This document shows positions 46,255-54,528 of a stretch of DNA of 64,000 bases, piece by piece (the first letter of the stretch is position 1; the number at the start of each line of letters is the position of its first letter). Under the pieces are notes generated by a model. That model saw only the letters and a list, made by a program, of their open reading frames with translations, did no database searches and was not told where the DNA came from. The stretch spans positions 293,217 to 357,216 of the forward strand of contig JBNASD010000001.1 in the NCBI GenBank assembly GCA_049720225.1, in the 5' to 3' direction. The position numbers were made by a program, and so were the translations under genes. Origin of the DNA: Microgenomates group bacterium (GTDB taxonomy: Bacteria > Patescibacteriota > Microgenomatia > PFEM01 > JBNASD01).

Positions 46255-46265
46255 TTTTATTTTGT

Positions 46266-46710
46266 TTATCTATTTTTGCTATTTTCCCTCTTTCTTTTAA
46301 CAAACTCAATAGTTCCTAGAATTGTTCTTCCTAAACGCAAAAGACTATATAAAAAAATAAACAAAAAGAAGAAAAAAGAAAAACATATTCCAATAGTGAT
46401 AATAAAAAGAACAAAAATCATTAACGCTAAAGAAAATCCCTCGAAATTTTTAAAATTATAAAAAAACGCCGAAAAACTAAAAATTAATATTATTAAACTC
46501 AATTAATATTATTAAACTCAAAAATAATCCCAAAATCTTTAAAATAGGAAGATTTAATATTTTTGGTTTTCTGATCCCTTCTTTTCTCCATTTTTTAATA
46601 AATGTTTGCCGAATAAAAGAACAAAAACGATAAGCTCGAGCTAAAAACCTAAATAATTCTATATCAAATTTTTCAGCTTCATATTTGAAATTAATTTTAA
46701 TAAAAGACAT
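46266..46710 (-). pseudogene. Small membrane-protein gene split into two ORFs by a 19-bp tandem duplication
   Basis: ORFs 46477..46710 and 46266..46502 (TTG start) meet exactly at the duplicated unit. Removing one copy fuses them in frame into a single hydrophobic protein of about 149 aa (...KILGLFLSLIILIFSFSAFF...). Confidence 0.5.
46482..46519. repeat. Perfect 2x tandem direct repeat of the 19-nt unit AATTAATATTATTAAACTC
   Basis: I read it directly: copies at 46482-46500 and 46501-46519. Confidence 0.9.
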
Positions 46711-46920
46711 TTTTTAAATTAATTATTAATCCCCTCCTTTGAAATCACACTTATTAACTTAAATTTATCAATCAAATACTGTCTTCATTTATCGGGTTTT
46801 TCTTATTGTCTTTCCGTCTCTTTTAAAATCTGATAGGCAATATCGTTAAAAGAGAATAATAATTCCTTTTTTATATATTCTTTTTTAATAAATTTTTAAA
46901 CTTACTTGCCGTCTTTTAAA

Positions 46921-47349
46921 TTATTTATGTCTGTATTTATTTTCTAAGCAATTTAATAATTTATTGATAGGCTCAATAAATTCTTCAGGAGGTATATAAA
47001 TCTTAAAACCTCCAAATAAATATTCAAATTGTTTGGTACGATAATATTCATTCATATGGCTAATTGATTTCAAAAACTGGTTGTCCAATTTATAAAGATT
47101 TAAAATTCCCTCTTTTTTACATAAATCTATTGCTTTTACAAGATCGTGTTTTAATTTTTTAATTTCATCAACTTTATAACCCCTGTAAAGAAGAAAAGAT
47201 TTAAAAGCAAGCTCCATTGAATGAAAAAGAAGAAAATATTTAACATTTGTCTTTTCTGTAATATTAGGGCACTTTTCATTTATAATTTTAAATGAGGACA
47301 AAAAGTCTTTTGCATATGTTAAATAGCCTATGTGTGTAGTTCCTCTCAT
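46921..47349 (-). CDS. Hypothetical protein in a very AT-rich island
   Basis: It is a 142-aa soluble ORF. Its composition is markedly AT-richer than the flanking core genes. I recognise no family. Confidence 0.4.
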   Translation of the reverse strand: MRGTTHIGYLTYAKDFLSSFKIINEKCPNITEKTNVKYFLLFHSMELAFKSFLLYRGYKVDEIKKLKHDLVKAIDLCKKEGILNLYKLDNQFLKSISHMNEYYRTKQFEYLFGGFKIYIPPEEFIEPINKLLNCLENKYRHK

Positions 47350-47498
47350 ATAAAATTTTTTAATTTATTTTAAATTATTTAGTGAACTAATCAAAAACCG
47401 GGAATTTACAAATTGACGAAATCTGAAGCAAGTCCCGAAATAGAGGTATGAAAACAAAAAACACCTAAAGGTTGCAAATATTAGAAAAACTCTATTTT

Positions 47499-48197
47499 TT
47501 AAATTTTGTTTAATAATATCCTAAGTAATATTCCAAATATGTCTAATAAGACTTTAAAATATGGCAACAAAAGAATTGTTATTATAAACCATAGGTCTCT
47601 TTTCAGTATTCTTCCTGATTGCCTATCATCATCTACTAAAACAATAGCAGGATATAAAAAATCAAGTTTTTCTAAAATATTAAAATAAATGAAAACAAGC
47701 AAAAAAGTTAAGTGTTGATTAATATATAGAAATTTTTTATTTAAAAATATTAAAAGCGTTCCTGTTAATAAAGAAAGAGCCCCTGCCAAAAGCAATGTTA
47801 TAAGTGTAAAATGGTTATTCCAACTTTTTTCATAAAATATTTTTTTAATAAATTTTTCACACTCTAATATAACCCCCTCCTCTTCAAAACCAAGATTTAC
47901 ATAAATTTTTTTGGAATAATCAATGGTTTTAATTTCAATATGAATCTTATTACCCCAATACAAAAGACGTATCCCTCTTATAAATTTAAAATTATTTTTA
48001 ATACTTCTTATTACCTCTGATTCGCTATTACAAGAGCACTCTTCTTCATTCTTTATTCTTAAAATCATCTCTACTTTTTCTTTACATATGCCCTTAGTGT
48101 CCTTTTTGGCTTTTTCAGAAAGAAAGTTATATAGATTAATAATTTCATCAATAGAACATATAGAAGAATTTAATTCAAAAGATTTAAAATATCTCAT
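47499..48197 (-). CDS. Hypothetical protein with a soluble N-domain and C-terminal TM helices
   Basis: It is 232 aa, with about 125 aa soluble (Cys/Glu-rich) then 2-3 TM. It lies 80 nt downstream of the RM gene on the same strand and is very AT-rich. Confidence 0.4.
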   Translation of the reverse strand: MRYFKSFELNSSICSIDEIINLYNFLSEKAKKDTKGICKEKVEMILRIKNEEECSCNSESEVIRSIKNNFKFIRGIRLLYWGNKIHIEIKTIDYSKKIYVNLGFEEEGVILECEKFIKKIFYEKSWNNHFTLITLLLAGALSLLTGTLLIFLNKKFLYINQHLTFLLVFIYFNILEKLDFLYPAIVLVDDDRQSGRILKRDLWFIITILLLPYFKVLLDIFGILLRILLNKI

Positions 48198-48277
48198 ACT
48201 CTTATTTCTTTTCTTATTAACACCAGTTTAATTAACCCCGATATTCGACGAATGATTTAAATTTTAATAAACCTTTA

Positions 48278-51200
48278 TCAACCAAAGATATTTTCCCAAA
48301 CCATATTTTTAATTCTTTCGGCAATTTTAAAATTGACAATTCCCTCAAGGGCTTCATCTATAAATTTATTTATTCTTTCATACTCTTTTTTAATAATCGT
48401 TAAGTCATTTTTAAATCTATTTTCAGGAATTATAACTTCCTCTCGTTTCATAAGAACAAATAATTGCAGTAATTCTGCCTCATCTTGGCTTTGACAGTCA
48501 ATTTTTTGTTTACCGCAAACTAACTGCCAACCTAGCAAACTTTGAATTACTTGAGGTTTCTGTTTGCTATCGGAGGGCAATTTTACTAATTTTCCTTTTT
48601 TATTCTTTAAAGGATTATACTTTTGCCAAATAGCAGTTAATGGAGTTTTGCCAATCCATTTTAAAATTTGCTCTACCTGTTTTTCCTCAACCACCTTTTT
48701 TTTGGATTTATTTTTTGAGGTAACACTTTTAGCTCGTTTAAGACGGGAGGAAACTAAATCAATAATTGCTCGATAAACCTCTAACTGCTCTTCTTCAGTT
48801 AGACCCAAAATATCACCCATAATGATTTGGTCAAGTTTTCTAAGTTGAGGGTTAATTTTGTGTAAAAAAACTTCATCTAAAGTACTTGCTCTTAATAAAG
48901 CAAAAATATTCTCCATTAAAGTAGAAGACAATTTGCTAAGCAAGATTTGCACCTCAGTTATTTTGGATTCTTCGATCACTTTGGGATTAGGCAATAATAT
49001 TTTTTTAAATTCGTAGGTTTGAATTTTTAATAGACCACCTCCAAAAGTAGTTCTGCCTTCTATGTTTTCAAAAAACCAAAACAAAGATGAATTTATCAAA
49101 GGGGCTATGAGGTAATTCGTGTGTATTTCCTGAAAATCATCGCTTACATTAACACTACCAACATATCCTCTTCCTATATCATGAATAAGGTAATTGATAT
49201 TAAGATTTGTTATTCTCCTTTTTCCTAAATCATACCATCTTTTCCTGCTCGCACATGTTGGTCTTTTGTGAAACCCTTTTCTTTCACCTTCTTTGATATA
49301 CTTTAAAACATTAGTCCCTTTGAGTTCTTCTTTATCTTTATGAATCATCAAAACCCTATATTTTAGGTCCTTGGGGTTAATGACAATCGACTTGCATTCG
49401 CGGGGAGATTTAATAATATAGTTTGGCACCCAATTACCCTTTTCATCTTGATGCATCCAAAATTCTTTTTCAATACCTCTCCTTTTAATTTCCTCTTCGG
49501 TGAGATAAAAAAATTCATTAGCTCCTGTGGTGATACCCCTGCGAACATCAGCTACTTCTTTAAGAGGCACTAATTTGTCTTTGCATTTTTCCAGAATTTT
49601 AAAAAAGATTTGCGGAGCCCTGATGTACTTTCCCCATTTTGAACCAACATAAGTTTGCGTTTCTTCATCAAATCCTTCATCCCATAGTTCTTTTTGTAAT
49701 TTTGGGTAAATTCTTATCTTTTCGTCTTCAAAATATTTATCATGAGCTAAGATTAAATCCTTAAGTTGACTGATTTTTTGCCATCTTTCTTTTTGAAGTG
49801 CTTGATTGGTAGAAAAAATCGGGATAAAATCAGAAAGTGGTTTTTTAAGCTGAACAAAGCGAACTAAATTATTATCTCTTTCTTCCTTGTTTTTTTCTCC
49901 CTCGCATTTTTCCAAAATTACAATACAGGTATTAATATCCGCATCTTCAAACCAGCGCTCGACTTTTGATTCGATAATGGCAATAATTTTGGCATTTTTG
50001 AGAAAAAATTCTTGAAGACCTTTGCCGTAATCAACATCAAGCCAGGAGTTGGAAACAATAAACCCAAACATCCCTCCATTTTGGAGAAATTTGAAACCGT
50101 GAACAAAAAAATAAGCGTGAATGCCTGCTCTCTTAGAAATTGTTGCCAGTTTTTTTCCTCGAGTATCATAAATAGCTGATTCTATTAATTTTTCTTTGTA
50201 TCGCTCTCCCTTGCCTGAAATATCTTCAATTTCTTCCTGCCGAGTGTAAGGAGGATTACCAACAACGGCATTAACTATTCTTGGGTAAGGTATTTTCTGA
50301 ATTGTACCGTCATATCTTTTAACTTCTTTTGCGTCTATATTTGGATACTCTGCCAATCCACCAAGTTTTAACTCAAAAAAATCATTTTGAAAAATTTGCG
50401 GATAGTTATCTTTTTCTCTTAAATCTCTTATGACTAAATTAATTGTTGCAAGATGAGCAGGAAATTTAGCAATATCTACGCCCCATAAAGAAGAAAGTAT
50501 TTCTTTGTGCGTCAATGTTGGGTCAAGAAGTCTTTTAAGAAAATAGCTTTGGATTAAAAAGGTACCTGTGCCACAAGCAGGGTCTAAAACCGTATCTTTG
50601 GTAGGATTTTTGAGACAAAAATTAAGAATTAAATCAACAACATCAGTGCGAGTAAAATATTGACCAAGATTGTGTCTTTCTGCTGCAGGAATTAAATTTT
50701 CAAATATCTTTCCGATAGTATCAGGAGTATCTTTTACCAACTGACCCCAATCGTATTTATTTAAAGCCTCAATAAGGTCAATTATCGTTTGAATTACTGC
50801 CTGATTGTTAGTTGAGAAAGCCAATGTATCAATAAAATCGGTAGAATAAATAGTCTCATAATCAATATTTAAAACATGCTGGAATTTTGCTTGCAGTTCT
50901 GTTTGGAGCTGACCGCCTGTGGCTAAATCACGAGGTATTTTTAGCTCCGGGATTCGTGCAGTTTGTGCCCGAAGGATCTCATAAAAGAATATTTTATTTA
51001 CCAAAAGATAAGCAGTTTGTCGAGCGGCTTTTTCAAAATCATAAGTCTCAGGGAATGGTGGTAAACTCCAAAACTGTTCAGAAAACCATTTTCTAAGTTT
51101 TTTTCTAAAATCGGTATCACTTTGATATTTTTCTTCAATGACAGGAAGATAAAGTCTTGTTAAAATTTTGATTTTCTCTAAAAGTCTAAAAATTAAAATT

Positions 51201-51736
51201 TCATCTAGTGGTAATTTTTTAGGCTTTTCTTTTTTGAAGTATAAAGCATAAAGGTCCAAAAGTATTTTTTTGAGTTCTTTTTGAATAGGCAATTGATAAG
51301 AGAAGTTTTCCAAATAGTCTAAATTTTCAATATTAGAAAGATTGTATTTAGCAATAATTTGGTCTTCTTCTTTTTTTAGATTGTTAACTTTTGCGGTATC
51401 CCAAAGAATAAGAGTCTTAAAATTAGAGGTAGCGAAGTATGGAGACTTTCTTAAGGTTGCCTTTTTACGCGCCGGTTCTTTTAGATTCTCCCCATCAAAA
51501 ACGTCATAAAAAGGAGGCTTAAATTCAATTAGCAATAATGTTCTGGTGTTTTCGGGCGAATCATAAAGAATACAGTCCGGTCTTTTTCCATCCACTCCTT
51601 TCTTTTCTATCCTTGCTTGACCAAATGGTAAATTTTCTTCTCTAATAATTTGGTTTATCCATTCAGCAATAATAGCAGCAGCGCTCCATTCTGTATGATG
51701 ATCAATAATTTCAAAAGGGTTTACGAATTTATTCAT
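48278..51736 (-). CDS. Type IIG-like restriction-modification enzyme: N-terminal PD-(D/E)xK nuclease fused to a gamma-class N6-adenine DNA methyltransferase and specificity region
   Basis: The N-terminus has RPDCILYD...LLLIEFK (D..ExK). Mid-protein it has SAM motif I VLDPACGTGTFL upstream of catalytic motif IV VVGNPPY. The C-terminal half, about 550 aa, is unassigned (TRD/helical). Total length is 1152 aa. Confidence 0.75.
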   Translation of the reverse strand: MNKFVNPFEIIDHHTEWSAAAIIAEWINQIIREENLPFGQARIEKKGVDGKRPDCILYDSPENTRTLLLIEFKPPFYDVFDGENLKEPARKKATLRKSPYFATSNFKTLILWDTAKVNNLKKEEDQIIAKYNLSNIENLDYLENFSYQLPIQKELKKILLDLYALYFKKEKPKKLPLDEILIFRLLEKIKILTRLYLPVIEEKYQSDTDFRKKLRKWFSEQFWSLPPFPETYDFEKAARQTAYLLVNKIFFYEILRAQTARIPELKIPRDLATGGQLQTELQAKFQHVLNIDYETIYSTDFIDTLAFSTNNQAVIQTIIDLIEALNKYDWGQLVKDTPDTIGKIFENLIPAAERHNLGQYFTRTDVVDLILNFCLKNPTKDTVLDPACGTGTFLIQSYFLKRLLDPTLTHKEILSSLWGVDIAKFPAHLATINLVIRDLREKDNYPQIFQNDFFELKLGGLAEYPNIDAKEVKRYDGTIQKIPYPRIVNAVVGNPPYTRQEEIEDISGKGERYKEKLIESAIYDTRGKKLATISKRAGIHAYFFVHGFKFLQNGGMFGFIVSNSWLDVDYGKGLQEFFLKNAKIIAIIESKVERWFEDADINTCIVILEKCEGEKNKEERDNNLVRFVQLKKPLSDFIPIFSTNQALQKERWQKISQLKDLILAHDKYFEDEKIRIYPKLQKELWDEGFDEETQTYVGSKWGKYIRAPQIFFKILEKCKDKLVPLKEVADVRRGITTGANEFFYLTEEEIKRRGIEKEFWMHQDEKGNWVPNYIIKSPRECKSIVINPKDLKYRVLMIHKDKEELKGTNVLKYIKEGERKGFHKRPTCASRKRWYDLGKRRITNLNINYLIHDIGRGYVGSVNVSDDFQEIHTNYLIAPLINSSLFWFFENIEGRTTFGGGLLKIQTYEFKKILLPNPKVIEESKITEVQILLSKLSSTLMENIFALLRASTLDEVFLHKINPQLRKLDQIIMGDILGLTEEEQLEVYRAIIDLVSSRLKRAKSVTSKNKSKKKVVEEKQVEQILKWIGKTPLTAIWQKYNPLKNKKGKLVKLPSDSKQKPQVIQSLLGWQLVCGKQKIDCQSQDEAELLQLFVLMKREEVIIPENRFKNDLTIIKKEYERINKFIDEALEGIVNFKIAERIKNMVWENIFG

Positions 51737-52092
51737 TTTGTTTTTTCTTTTATTTCCTTAGTAACCTGATTGACGATTCTTCTAGCTATTTCCAGCGCCG
51801 CGGCAATTCTTACCACTTTTACTTGTTTTAATCCCTTAATTTGATAAAGTTTTTCAAAGGGTTGATTAGCTAATCCCCTAAAATCTTTAAATCTTTCGAT
51901 TATTTCTTCTGCCATTTTTAAAGCAGGTTTTTTAGGTATACCTGAACCAATCAAAATTGCTAAAAGTTCTGCATCTGTACAATATTGGGCCCCTTTTCTT
52001 AGAAGTTTACCTCCAGGGTGTTTCCATGTTATCCTTTTTATCCCAAAATTTTTTCTTTCTTTCCCTTTCTCCATTTTTCTATATTTTCCCAC
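51733..52092 (-). CDS. RadC N-terminal (HhH) domain-like protein lacking the JAB/MPN domain
   Basis: CTDAELLAILIGSGIPKKPALKMAEEII..F.....LANQPFEKLYQIKGLKQVKVVRIAAALEIARR matches the UPF0758/RadC N-terminus. Its stop overlaps the RM gene start (ATGA). Confidence 0.55.
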   Translation of the reverse strand: MGKYRKMEKGKERKNFGIKRITWKHPGGKLLRKGAQYCTDAELLAILIGSGIPKKPALKMAEEIIERFKDFRGLANQPFEKLYQIKGLKQVKVVRIAAALEIARRIVNQVTKEIKEKTK

Positions 52093-52265
52093 AAAAATTC
52101 TTTCTTCTCAATAAAAAATGAGGAAAAAACTATATCAAGTAATAAATTTAAATCTCCGTTTTTTCTTTACTTTTGATAATACGGAAGTATACGAATAACA
52201 GTGGTTTAAAAGATAATATTTGGAGAAAAAAGTAAAGTTTAATATAATATTTATATCCAACAAAA

Positions 52266-53327
52266 ATGGCAATTATTATTTCAAAAAGCGGTCAAAATGC
52301 AATTAAAATTGAAAAAAGTGATCTTGAAAATGAGAAACATCTTCAACAATATATTTATAACAATCCAGAAAGTATTCCTCTTTACAATATTAAAGAAGAT
52401 ATTCGTCTTTTAATTTTAGCACGCGAATTTTCCACTAAAAGTGGACCAATTGATGCCTTGGGAATTGATAAAGATGGCGAAATTTACCTAATTGAAACAA
52501 AACTTTATAAAAATTCTGATAAAAGAATGGTTGTAGCCCAAGTTTTAGATTATGGAGCATCTCTCTGGTCTAATTATCGAGACTTTAATAATTTTATTAA
52601 TCAAATAGAAACCCACACATTTAAAGATTTTAATCAAAATCTAAGCCAAAGACTAAATGACTTTTTTGGTATATCAAAAGAAGAAGAAAAAACGCTTTTA
52701 GAAAATGTTAGAAGAAATTTGAATGAAGGAAATTTTAAATTTGTAGTTTTAATGGATCATTTACATGATCAACTCAAAGATTTAATTATTTTCTTAAACA
52801 ATAACAGCGAATTTACAATTTATGCGGTAGAACTGGAATATTACAAACACCAAGACTTTGAAATTTTAATTCCTAAACTTTACGGCGCAGAAATTAAAAA
52901 AGATATCGGAAAAAATACCCCTGTTATACCAACAGACGACGATTTTATTAAAGCTTTTCAAGGCCAACCAGAGGAAAATAAAGTTAAAGAACTAATCGAT
53001 TTCTTTAACGATTTAAGAGAAGGAAGAAAAAAAATTAAAAATGTAACAGTTGCCAAAACATTTAAGAATCTAAATTTTTATGTGACTACCAGTTATCAAG
53101 ATAAGATTTCCATTTCTTTATATATTCAAAGAAGAGAAGGCAGTTTAGATTTTTGGGGAACCAAAAAAATTGATCAAATAGTAAGGGAAAAGATTAAAAA
53201 ATTGCTTCCTCGTGCCGAAATCCAAAAAGAAATGACGACAAGTTTTGGCATTATTGCTAAATGGCCAATGAAAGATTATTCAACAGAGAAATTTGAACAA
53301 TTACTTCGAAAATTAAGTCAAATCTAA
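52266..53327 (+). CDS. DUF91/NucS-like PD-(D/E)xK nuclease family protein with an unassigned C-terminal domain
   Basis: It has E.HLQQYIYNNPESI...LAREFSTKSGPIDALGIDKDGEIYLIETK...VVAQVLDYGASL, the characteristic core of the NucS-C/DUF91 family. Confidence 0.6.
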   Translation: MAIIISKSGQNAIKIEKSDLENEKHLQQYIYNNPESIPLYNIKEDIRLLILAREFSTKSGPIDALGIDKDGEIYLIETKLYKNSDKRMVVAQVLDYGASLWSNYRDFNNFINQIETHTFKDFNQNLSQRLNDFFGISKEEEKTLLENVRRNLNEGNFKFVVLMDHLHDQLKDLIIFLNNNSEFTIYAVELEYYKHQDFEILIPKLYGAEIKKDIGKNTPVIPTDDDFIKAFQGQPEENKVKELIDFFNDLREGRKKIKNVTVAKTFKNLNFYVTTSYQDKISISLYIQRREGSLDFWGTKKIDQIVREKIKKLLPRAEIQKEMTTSFGIIAKWPMKDYSTEKFEQLLRKLSQI

Positions 53328-53504
53328 AAACCCATCAATTCCACCTTCCAAAAATCTTTTTTTTAATCTTTGTCAATGACCAAAATAGGAAGGCTTTTGC
53401 GTCATTTTTTCTTATTTTTTCACAAACTCCTTTTCTTCTCAAGAAAAAATATTATAGTTATTTTTTTTATTTTTTTAAACTTTAATAATATAATTAATCA
53501 AAAC

Positions 53505-53792
53505 ATGCGCGAAAAAGAACTTCATCCTTATCAGCGAAGATTAGGGGAAGAGGGAGAATTAGAAAGATATCTTTTCCCAAAAGGGACAATGATTTGGCCG
53601 AAATATTCAGGAAGAGGAATTTTAACTCAAGATTGCTATGCAAAAAGATTAAACTGTAAAATAAGAGGTCTAACCGGTTTTAAAAGTTGTGAACCACTCT
53701 TTTTACGTTTAGACGAAAGGCATTGGACTTTACCGGAAGGAACTACTTTTGGAGCATATGTAAAGACTGGCAAAAAGCGTAAAATAAAATAA
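53505..53792 (+). CDS. Small hypothetical protein
   Basis: It is an internal ATG of track ORF 53370..53792. The upstream part of that ORF is low-complexity F/I/L text and is unlikely to be coding. The remainder (MREKELHPYQRRLGEEGELERYLFPKG...) has normal composition. Confidence 0.3.
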   Translation: MREKELHPYQRRLGEEGELERYLFPKGTMIWPKYSGRGILTQDCYAKRLNCKIRGLTGFKSCEPLFLRLDERHWTLPEGTTFGAYVKTGKKRKIK

Positions 53793-53879
53793 AAAAAGGA
53801 AACACCACAAATAGAAGATTATCCTTATTCTTATGCTACTACCGGTGCTTCTGAATATAAATTTTCTTTTGGTTCTACA

Positions 53880-54452
53880 TTGGCAAAATTAAGAGAAAAA
53901 ATTGCTCCTTTCAGATTCGGATTAGCAGCGAAAGAAATTATTCGCAGTCTAAATCTGGAAGGGAAAGAAAAAATTTTAGAAATAGGTAGCGGATTAGGAT
54001 TGCTAGGCCAAGAAATTAAAAAAAGAATTGGAACAAAAACTTTTTATGTAGGAATAGATCTTGCTTTTAATCCCCTTGAAAAAAGTAAAGATAGAGAAAT
54101 TTTGCCAGTTCAGGGGAACGCAATTAAACTTCCCTTTACCGATGAAGCTTTTGATGTAGTGATTTCTACCGATGTTTTAGAACATATTCCTAACGCAGAA
54201 GAAGTGATAAAAGAAATAAGAAGAGTTTTAAAACCGGGAGGTAAAGCTTTTATTGTTATTGCGGATCCTTCAGAACCAAGATTTGAAAATGTTGTTGACC
54301 ATATTAAAAGATCCCAAAGTGCCTCTGATGTTCCTTTGGGAAAATCTTTTTCGAAAAAATGGTTTTACTATTCTTCCAGAGTCCCAAAAATATCGCCAGA
54401 AAGATTGGCGAAAAATTTTCAATCTTCCATTTTTAGTAAAATTACGCAATAA
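53880..54452 (+). CDS. Class I SAM-dependent methyltransferase (Methyltransf_11-like)
   Basis: SAM motif I is ILEIGSGLGLLG. Motif II/post-I is YVGIDL and motif III is LKPGGKAFIV. Confidence 0.7.
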   Translation: MAKLREKIAPFRFGLAAKEIIRSLNLEGKEKILEIGSGLGLLGQEIKKRIGTKTFYVGIDLAFNPLEKSKDREILPVQGNAIKLPFTDEAFDVVISTDVLEHIPNAEEVIKEIRRVLKPGGKAFIVIADPSEPRFENVVDHIKRSQSASDVPLGKSFSKKWFYYSSRVPKISPERLAKNFQSSIFSKITQ

Positions 54453-54528
54453 ACCGGGTTTTGCCTGTGCTTTTAATCCCGTATGTCGCCCGGGAGTTTA
54501 TATTTTAAAACGAAATTAAATTAAAATC

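Follow-up and report, generated by a model that had tools for sequence, protein, structure and literature searches.

Does a restriction-modification (RM) enzyme that looks complete in itself need a partner, and do the genes around it belong to one system? Both questions are raised by a locus in a 64,000-nucleotide stretch of the genome of a Microgenomates group bacterium (contig JBNASD010000001.1, positions 293,217 to 357,216 of the forward strand; this whole stretch is called the window). There, the gene of a 1152-amino-acid (aa) Type IIG-like protein follows, and overlaps with, a small gene whose product resembles only the helix-hairpin-helix (HhH) N-terminal half of RadC. Enzymes of Type IIG are regarded as single polypeptides that suffice by themselves. 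The initial annotation, made from the sequence alone, noted this pairing as unfamiliar and proposed that the two genes may belong, with the genes around them, to a multi-component defence locus. In our opinion, the best explanation, with a probability of roughly 0.55, is a mobile RM operon equipped with a RadC-N accessory, next to which the other genes of the interval are independent neighbours.

All seven open reading frames (ORFs) flagged by the initial annotation were recovered at the same positions, and all motifs that it had named are present. The two genes of interest are located on the minus strand. The small RadC-N gene (51733-52092) codes for 119 aa when read from a GTG codon; an alternative start, the ATG at 52072-52074, gives a 113-aa product, as in the NCBI record. 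The gene of the large protein occupies positions 48278-51736. The TGA stop codon of the former and the ATG start codon of the latter share an ATGA overlap at 51733-51736. The reading we favour is that the core of the locus is a horizontally mobile two-gene RM operon, in which the enzyme is here translationally coupled to the small gene.

The small protein matches the Pfam UPF0758_N family (PF20582, 1.7e-18) over residues 25-94. The NCBIfam RadC model was matched only at positions 3-87 of 212, i.e., over its first ~40%, with 72 bits against a cut-off of 180; since the match stops at position 87, the protein lacks the JAB domain, and the description of its gene as the HhH N-terminal half of RadC without JAB is thus borne out. 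There are more than 1400 homologues, and lengths among the 120 best listed range from 96 to 206 aa: about three quarters measure 96-128 aa and roughly a quarter are tandem-domain forms of 183-206 aa. All 120 carry PF20582 and none carries JAB; two also show HhH-family matches. The listed homologues are 55-70% identical across phyla, and mean column identity in an alignment of 34 of them (A2) is 62%. A W-x-HPGGK motif is invariant and specific to this subfamily; RadC has P-R-E-K/R-L at the same place. The protein is basic, with a pI of ~10, and the pI exceeds 8 in 28 of the 34 homologues.

The AlphaFold2 model of the small protein is all-helical (pLDDT 86.6), and its fold neighbours, each of them weak, are all HhH modules (XPF, MutY, ERCC1-XPF, UvrC, NusA). 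A PDB sequence search with the small protein returned noise only. The paired (HhH)2 domains of XPF/ERCC1, UvrC and RuvA, top but weak fold neighbours (E of 0.26 or more), form a compact module like that of the small protein; they bind DNA non-specifically and mediate dimerisation. There, the module is joined to a nuclease in one chain, whereas here it is a polypeptide of its own. Taken together, the profile and model comparisons indicate that the small protein is a stand-alone RadC-type N-terminal (HhH)2 domain. It is homologous to the N-terminal HhH domain of RadC/UPF0758 proteins of the E. coli YicR type but is without the JAB/MPN domain that defines RadC, and it is found in RM operons rather than in the usual radC neighbourhood. 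The literature records the N-terminal domain of RadC as HhH without mention of an RM link.

The large protein matches the Pfam families N6_Mtase (8e-22) and Eco57I (2e-20), and also MmeI_Mtase and M_Eco57I_C. Its best full-architecture match in PADLOC is REase_MTase_IIG (2.7e-39, residues 45-753), and the PADLOC MTase_II model spans residues 696-1000. There are more than 1300 homologues; among the 120 best listed, which come from many phyla, most are ~50% identical over the full length and 1143-1195 aa long, with six shorter ones (893-1034 aa). We aligned 24 sequences drawn from many phyla (alignment A1) and examined the conservation of each part of the protein. The PD-(D/E)xK nuclease domain (residues 12-135, 51332-51703, minus strand), which carries the RPDC...IEFK motif, was modelled confidently (pLDDT 80-92), and its triad D54/E71/K73 is invariant in A1; translation placed the D54 codon at 51575-51577 and E71-F-K73 at 51518-51526. 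The gamma-class N6-adenine methyltransferase core covers residues 361-640 (49817-50656, minus strand). Motif I, DPACGTGTF (residues 385-393, 50558-50584), and motif IV, NPPY (residues 494-497, 50246-50257), are likewise invariant in A1, the former as DPxCGxGTF. The position of motif I before motif IV is the gamma-class order, as the initial annotation had it.

The methyltransferase core is followed by a specificity module, or target-recognition domain (TRD), at residues 641-1005 (48722-49816, minus strand), within which M_Eco57I_C spans residues 725-914. Residues ~838-945 (48902-49225) form a hypervariable cassette, which exists in A1 in a few discrete versions that are swapped among homologues otherwise ~50% identical; its mean identity is 0.27, against 0.5-0.7 elsewhere. 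This is the pattern that would be expected of an exchangeable target-recognition cassette. Behind a Lys-rich linker lies a C-terminal domain of ~140 aa (residues ~1010-1152, 48281-48709, minus strand), which was modelled confidently (pLDDT ~80-90) and for which neither Pfam nor PDB gave a match. In eight related loci (including L037, L054, L057 and L075), the C-terminal domain of ~130-140 aa is a separate ORF after the Lys-rich linker. It is, therefore, a separable module; the separate ORFs could be due to frameshifts in the A-rich linker, or the subunit could truly be split. The ~550 aa of C-terminal sequence that had been left unassigned are thus mostly TRD region, and only residues ~1010-1152 stay without a family.

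The model of the whole enzyme (overall pLDDT 72) was compared with known structures by Foldseek. The best match was BpuSI (3s1s, E 5.6e-17, 1084 columns), followed by CamA, DrdV and BsaXI. BpuSI, MmeI (5hr4), DrdV (7lo5) and Eco57I, i.e., enzymes of Type IIG/IIL, have the same one-chain order of nuclease, linker, gamma-class methyltransferase and TRD, and over its full length the window enzyme resembles BpuSI most closely in fold. Sequence relatedness to these enzymes is confined to the methyltransferase core. What sets the window enzyme apart is the additional 140-aa C-terminal domain without a family and the near-obligate small HhH partner gene; to our knowledge, the characterised Type IIG/IIL enzymes act without such a partner. 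The invariant triad, the PADLOC model and the BpuSI fold match all support the assignment of the large protein as a Type IIG-like nuclease-methyltransferase on a single chain, as first annotated, with cleavage and methylation as its predicted activities. We regard the enzyme as a new member of Type IIG.

Other affiliations were considered and rejected. A BREX PglX was dismissed at 21.5 bits for NF033451 (cut-off 400), and no BREX component family was found among the scanned window ORFs at 43-58 kb or in related loci with listed genes. A Type I HsdM was dismissed in view of the missing HsdM_N match, the nuclease and internal TRD that are present, and the absence of hsdS or hsdR neighbours. Profile scores, domain content and neighbouring genes thus exclude the two identities, BREX PglX and plain HsdM, that would have contradicted the first description of the protein. 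MAD2 of the MADS system was also rejected, NF047738 reaching 66 bits where its cut-off is 720. Among the other window proteins, none matched mad models at 0.001, save for a strong mad2 match of a 190-aa protein, which falls within the shared S-adenosylmethionine (SAM) methyltransferase domain.

Is the pairing of the two genes a peculiarity of this genome? We scanned one genome per species for the enzyme and obtained 304 relatives, of which the best 80, spanning more than 25 phylum-level lineages (including Pacearchaeota, Methanosarcinales, Altiarchaeota and Methanomicrobia), were used; 77 had upstream DNA. The small gene was present upstream of the enzyme in 74 of these 77 loci, directly adjacent in 65 and separated by an insert of 0.2-1.3 kb in nine. 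A second sample was selected by the small gene and comprised 80 metagenome loci, 72 with sufficient downstream DNA; the enzyme followed in 63. The same operon was observed at two distant homologues of the small protein, from Actinomycetota and Gottesmanbacteria. We therefore conclude that the coupling of the small gene and the enzyme, first noticed in the window, is a real and strongly conserved association. Our literature searches found no description of a RadC-N partner of a Type IIG enzyme, in agreement with the unfamiliarity expressed in the initial annotation, and the pairing is absent from PADLOC v2.

Toxin-antitoxin (TA) cassettes are located between the two genes in ~10-14% of loci and do not break the operon. 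Such cassettes were seen in L019, L025, L026, L030, L034, L038, L061, L064 and L086, and TA inserts are also present in L108, L110, L114, L136, L137, L166, L169, L179 and L181. Most inserts are TA cassettes; judged by eye, they are RelE/ParE-, HicA/HicB-, PIN-, MNT/HEPN- and DUF4258/DUF2283-like. The last TA gene of an insert often has a 4-nt overlap with the ATG of the enzyme, and the junction looks like a hotspot of TA insertion. In L086, a PIN-type pair lies between two copies of the small gene. L120 (4295-8276) has no RM enzyme at this place: behind the small gene come a PIN-type TA pair and then genes for proteins of 71 and 211 aa and for a GHKL-like protein longer than 700 aa; a homologue of the 71-aa protein is encoded upstream of the small gene in L064 (4961-5179).

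Upstream of the small gene, at a distance of 60-110 nt, a sigma-70-like promoter TTGACCATAT-N-TATAAAATT was seen in L019, L024, L034, L037, L039 and L055. Since it is common to loci of different phyla, it suggests that the cassette carries its promoter along when it moves. Neither plasmids nor viral contigs yielded a close relative of the enzyme (the best on plasmids was 28% identical and without the small gene); the small gene was found on one viral contig only.

The enzyme of the window is not the only kind that the small protein accompanies. At least three of the nine loci of the small-gene-selected sample in which the enzyme did not follow carry a different Type IIG-like gene after a TA pair, and in four of the nine the enzyme has been lost. 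In L132 (1343-2459), L140 (1055-1481) and L163 (4803-5072), the same small-protein subfamily and a TA pair precede a different large protein, which matches the PADLOC Type IIG model PDLC03630 (4.7e-24) and at which tblastn with the window enzyme was silent. The tandem-duplicated UPF0758_N protein of 183-206 aa, whose two domain copies are 45% and 41% identical to the window protein, was found directly upstream of a protein of 815-851 aa in four out of four look-ups (L087-L092, L096-L100), mostly with an overlap. This partner combines an N-terminal N6_N4_Mtase domain with an NmeDI_C region and has nothing detectable in common with the window enzyme beyond the SAM-binding motif. With three such contexts, RadC-N is a companion of no fewer than three families of methyltransferase fusions, and the tandem form suggests that the functional unit is two domains, i.e., a dimer of the single-domain protein. 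It may be, with odds just short of even, that stand-alone RadC-N proteins, single or tandem, are widespread unrecognised accessory subunits, dedicated to single-chain DNA methyltransferase/nuclease enzymes of at least three unrelated architectures.

What could such a subunit do? In 54 loci, pairwise identity of the small protein was correlated with that of each enzyme region. Divergence of the small protein followed that of the nuclease domain (r 0.71), the helical linker (r 0.79), the methyltransferase (r 0.71) and the C-terminal domain (r 0.78). The correlations within the TRD were low: r 0.29 for residues 641-835, 0.12 for the variable cassette 838-945 and 0.31 for residues 946-1005. The specificity module thus recombines on its own, and a role of the small protein as specificity factor is ruled out. 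In this respect, the operon differs from the Type IIB systems BcgI and BsaXI (the latter among the fold matches), which likewise consist of a large nuclease-methyltransferase chain and a small separate subunit: in Type IIB systems, specificity resides in the second (S) subunit, whereas in this operon the large chain contains the TRD, with which the small protein shows no co-variation.

The model we propose is as follows. The enzyme is built, from its N-terminus on, of the PD-(D/E)xK nuclease domain, the helical linker, the gamma-class N6-adenine methyltransferase, the exchangeable TRD module and the C-terminal domain. The small protein would work as a dimer and bind DNA without sequence specificity; DNA binding is suggested because UPF0758_N is HhH, the fold neighbours are DNA-binding or dimerising HhH modules, and the pI is basic. 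As an accessory subunit, it may help the enzyme to engage or bridge DNA, for example, by bringing two nuclease domains together for double-strand cleavage, and sequence specificity would remain with the enzyme's own TRD. We regard the assignment of the small protein as a dimeric, non-specific DNA-binding accessory subunit of a single-chain RM enzyme as tentative, the odds being somewhat against it. Several observations weigh against the proposed role. Three loci (L053, L065 and L084) have full-length enzyme genes that are truly without the small gene upstream, and at four or five intact small genes the enzyme downstream has been lost; because solitary copies of each exist, neither gene is strictly dependent on an adjacent partner. 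None of the fold matches of the small protein is significant by itself (best E 0.26), and all close family members are from uncultured organisms. The cargo headed by the small gene is varied (TA pairs, two Type IIG families and the GHKL-like gene of L120), which would fit a leader or regulator role too, and its place, upstream of and overlapping with a nuclease-bearing gene, is that of a controller (C) protein gene.

C genes are located upstream of the nuclease gene, co-oriented and overlapping with it, and the C-protein RM operons of C.PvuII and C.AhdI likewise have a small gene immediately upstream of, co-transcribed with and overlapping the nuclease-bearing gene. The small HhH protein could, therefore, be a transcriptional controller that sets the timing or level of the downstream nuclease gene. 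Its gene is placed and oriented as C genes are, it leads operons of varied cargo (TA pairs and two Type IIG families), and the sigma-70-like promoter is found ahead of it in several loci from different phyla. C proteins, however, are Xre-type helix-turn-helix dimers that act on conserved C-box operators, whereas the small protein has an HhH fold, not a helix-turn-helix; such HhH modules bind DNA through its backbone, irrespective of sequence. In 72 regions upstream of the small gene, no 7-10 nt word exceeded the shuffle expectation, A-rich low-complexity words aside, although a degenerate or gapped operator could escape this search. The lack of a common operator word or palindrome, despite 62-66% identity of the protein across phyla, argues against a C-protein-like sequence-specific regulator. 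In addition, with restriction and modification fused in one polypeptide, delayed expression could hardly part methylation from cleavage. We consider a controller unlikely.

The small protein might also serve as a safety catch which, like an antitoxin, restrains the nuclease or shields host DNA until foreign DNA arrives. Translational coupling, by which it would be made before, and in step with, a potentially self-toxic enzyme, agrees with such a role, and so does the tight linkage of the two genes. The three intact full-length enzyme genes that have no small gene speak against it, as do the pairing of the small protein with enzyme families that have no nuclease domain in common and the insertion of bona fide TA pairs as separate units into the same operons; a safety catch is thus distinctly improbable. 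That the small ORF is a remnant of housekeeping radC, truncated by insertion of the RM gene, would explain why only the N-terminal 40% of RadC models is matched. This reading is refuted by conservation across the family and has practically no chance of being correct: there are over 1400 homologues, with no JAB domain in the 120 best listed, the W-x-HPGGK motif is invariant and subfamily-specific, the pairing is kept in 74 of 77 loci, and L058 additionally has a separate full-length RadC. Finally, the RM pair, the DUF91-like nuclease, the AT-rich genes and the SAM methyltransferase could act together as one multi-component defence system. They are clustered within 8 kb, and the 353-aa nuclease-like protein matches the PADLOC candidate PDC-S11. 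In 86 related loci, however, a search within 6 kb of the pair found homologues of none of the 353-, 232-, 142-, 140- and 190-aa proteins, nor any recurrent third gene. At the most closely related pair (70% identity), the neighbours are HTH_17 and DUF3800 genes, and the 353-aa gene occurs elsewhere in unrelated contexts and has its own direct repeats here. This comparison of synteny contradicts the multi-component locus of the initial annotation, which had suggested looking for co-occurrence of the RadC-N/RM pair and the DUF91 gene; none was seen in the 86 loci. A joint system is, accordingly, very improbable, and the 353-aa cassette and the 140-, 190-, 232- and 142-aa genes are independent neighbours of the RM pair.

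The neighbour on the other side of the small gene is the 353-aa NucS-like ORF (52266-53327, plus strand). Its predicted DUF91/NucS-C core stands in part. Residues D63/E77/K79 of a PD-(D/E)xK core are invariant in the family, and weak NucS_C matches occur in 14 of 20 family members; the match of the window protein itself (0.0011, 19.3 bits) is below the Pfam cut-off of 24. NucS (2vld) was matched weakly, at E 0.11, and PDC-S11 matches residues 7-202 with 7.5e-18. The nuclease-like core is N-terminal, and no match to the N-terminal DNA-binding domain of NucS was found in the protein. No family matched residues 200-353, in agreement with the C-terminal part of unknown kind described at first. The family counts 1904 homologues of ~354-360 aa; the few members with a source name are from Patescibacteria lineages. 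In other loci, the homologues have serine recombinases or RM systems, one of the BsaWI type and one of Type I, as neighbours; the gene directly after the 353-aa homologue codes for a large serine recombinase in both L093 and L103.

The 353-aa gene is flanked by an imperfect 48-nt direct repeat. The left copy (52072-52119) overlaps the 5′ end of the small RadC-N gene, and the right copy (53403-53450) is a degenerate duplicate of that 5′ end. The copies match at 37 of 48 positions, which is the best in a 10-kb region and above all 100 block-shuffles (maximum 34). Comparable flanking repeats of local sequence, 1276-1343 nt apart, were found in two of three other contexts (L103, 9735-9766 and 11078-11109; L094, 5886-5910 and 7162-7186). 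With flanking repeats of its own, the 353-aa gene looks like an independently inserted cassette, and the unit may be a small mobile or selfish nuclease cassette. The intergenic stretch that separates the small gene from the 353-aa gene (52093-52265), which holds most of the left copy and had been annotated as a divergent promoter, is better read as the junction of this inserted, repeat-flanked cassette.

Downstream of the 353-aa gene, a 140-aa ORF with a TTG start (53370-53792, plus strand) has no family and no homologue in any library. Its first ~45 codons (53370-53504) are of low complexity, run over the right repeat copy and probably have no coding function; a 95-aa ORF starting from an internal Met (MREKELHPYQ...) is more plausible than the 140-aa version. 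The next ORF (53880-54452, plus strand) codes for the 190-aa protein, a class I SAM methyltransferase (Pfam Methyltransf_11, 1.6e-20), just as the generic label given to it at first had implied. Its best NCBIfam matches, all below their cut-offs, are small-molecule methyltransferases, and it is not of a DNA methyltransferase family.

Two AT-rich genes lie downstream of the enzyme on the minus strand. The 232-aa ORF (47499-48197, 23.9% GC) has a soluble N-terminal half and hydrophobic segments at residues ~130-155, 163-181 and 201-232, in agreement with the predicted layout of a membrane-anchored protein, a soluble domain followed by transmembrane helices. It matched no family library; 22 cluster representatives, nearly all full-length at 211-242 aa, were found in 1.84 billion proteins, and the family is rare but real. 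The 142-aa ORF (46921-47349, 24.9% GC) also had no match in family libraries, and an idea obtained by eye, that it is HEPN-like, was dropped when profile comparison gave no support.

Mean GC content of the window is ~32%. The composition shift that had been taken as a sign of horizontal acquisition holds for 46255-48277, which at 23.7% GC is the lowest 2-kb stretch of the window and the only deviant part, but not for the RM pair, whose GC content of 33% is the genome average. A perfect 19-nt tandem duplication (AATTAATATTATTAAACTC, two copies) is located at 46482-46519, in the AT-rich stretch of short ORFs at 46.25-46.9 kb. The interval is flanked by ordinary non-defence genes (flavodoxin, trypsin-like protease, DUF192, UPF0047 and ZIP transporter). 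No island boundaries were identified around 46-54.5 kb: there is no tRNA, integrase or long flanking repeat, and there are no mobile-element edges. Promoter and terminator scans of the interval gave matches at shuffle level only. It is fair to describe the interval as a small accessory patch, not an integrated system.

For work with such enzymes, the association indicates that cloning, e.g., for new specificities, should take the upstream gene along, and the cleanly swappable specificity cassette is attractive for engineering. With a near-obligate HhH partner, present in bacteria and archaea alike and also taken up by unrelated methyltransferase fusions, RM systems would have a component of a new kind. 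The pairing also supplies a concrete context for the N-terminal domain of RadC, a protein whose function, to go by the title of one article (“RadC, a misleading name?”, cited in PMC3239186), is unclear. If stand-alone RadC-N proteins are indeed accessory subunits, the N-terminal domain of RadC would be a general module that couples DNA-processing enzymes to DNA, and more than 1000 genes labelled “DNA repair protein RadC” or “UPF0758 domain protein” would be RM components, so that many such annotations would be corrected.

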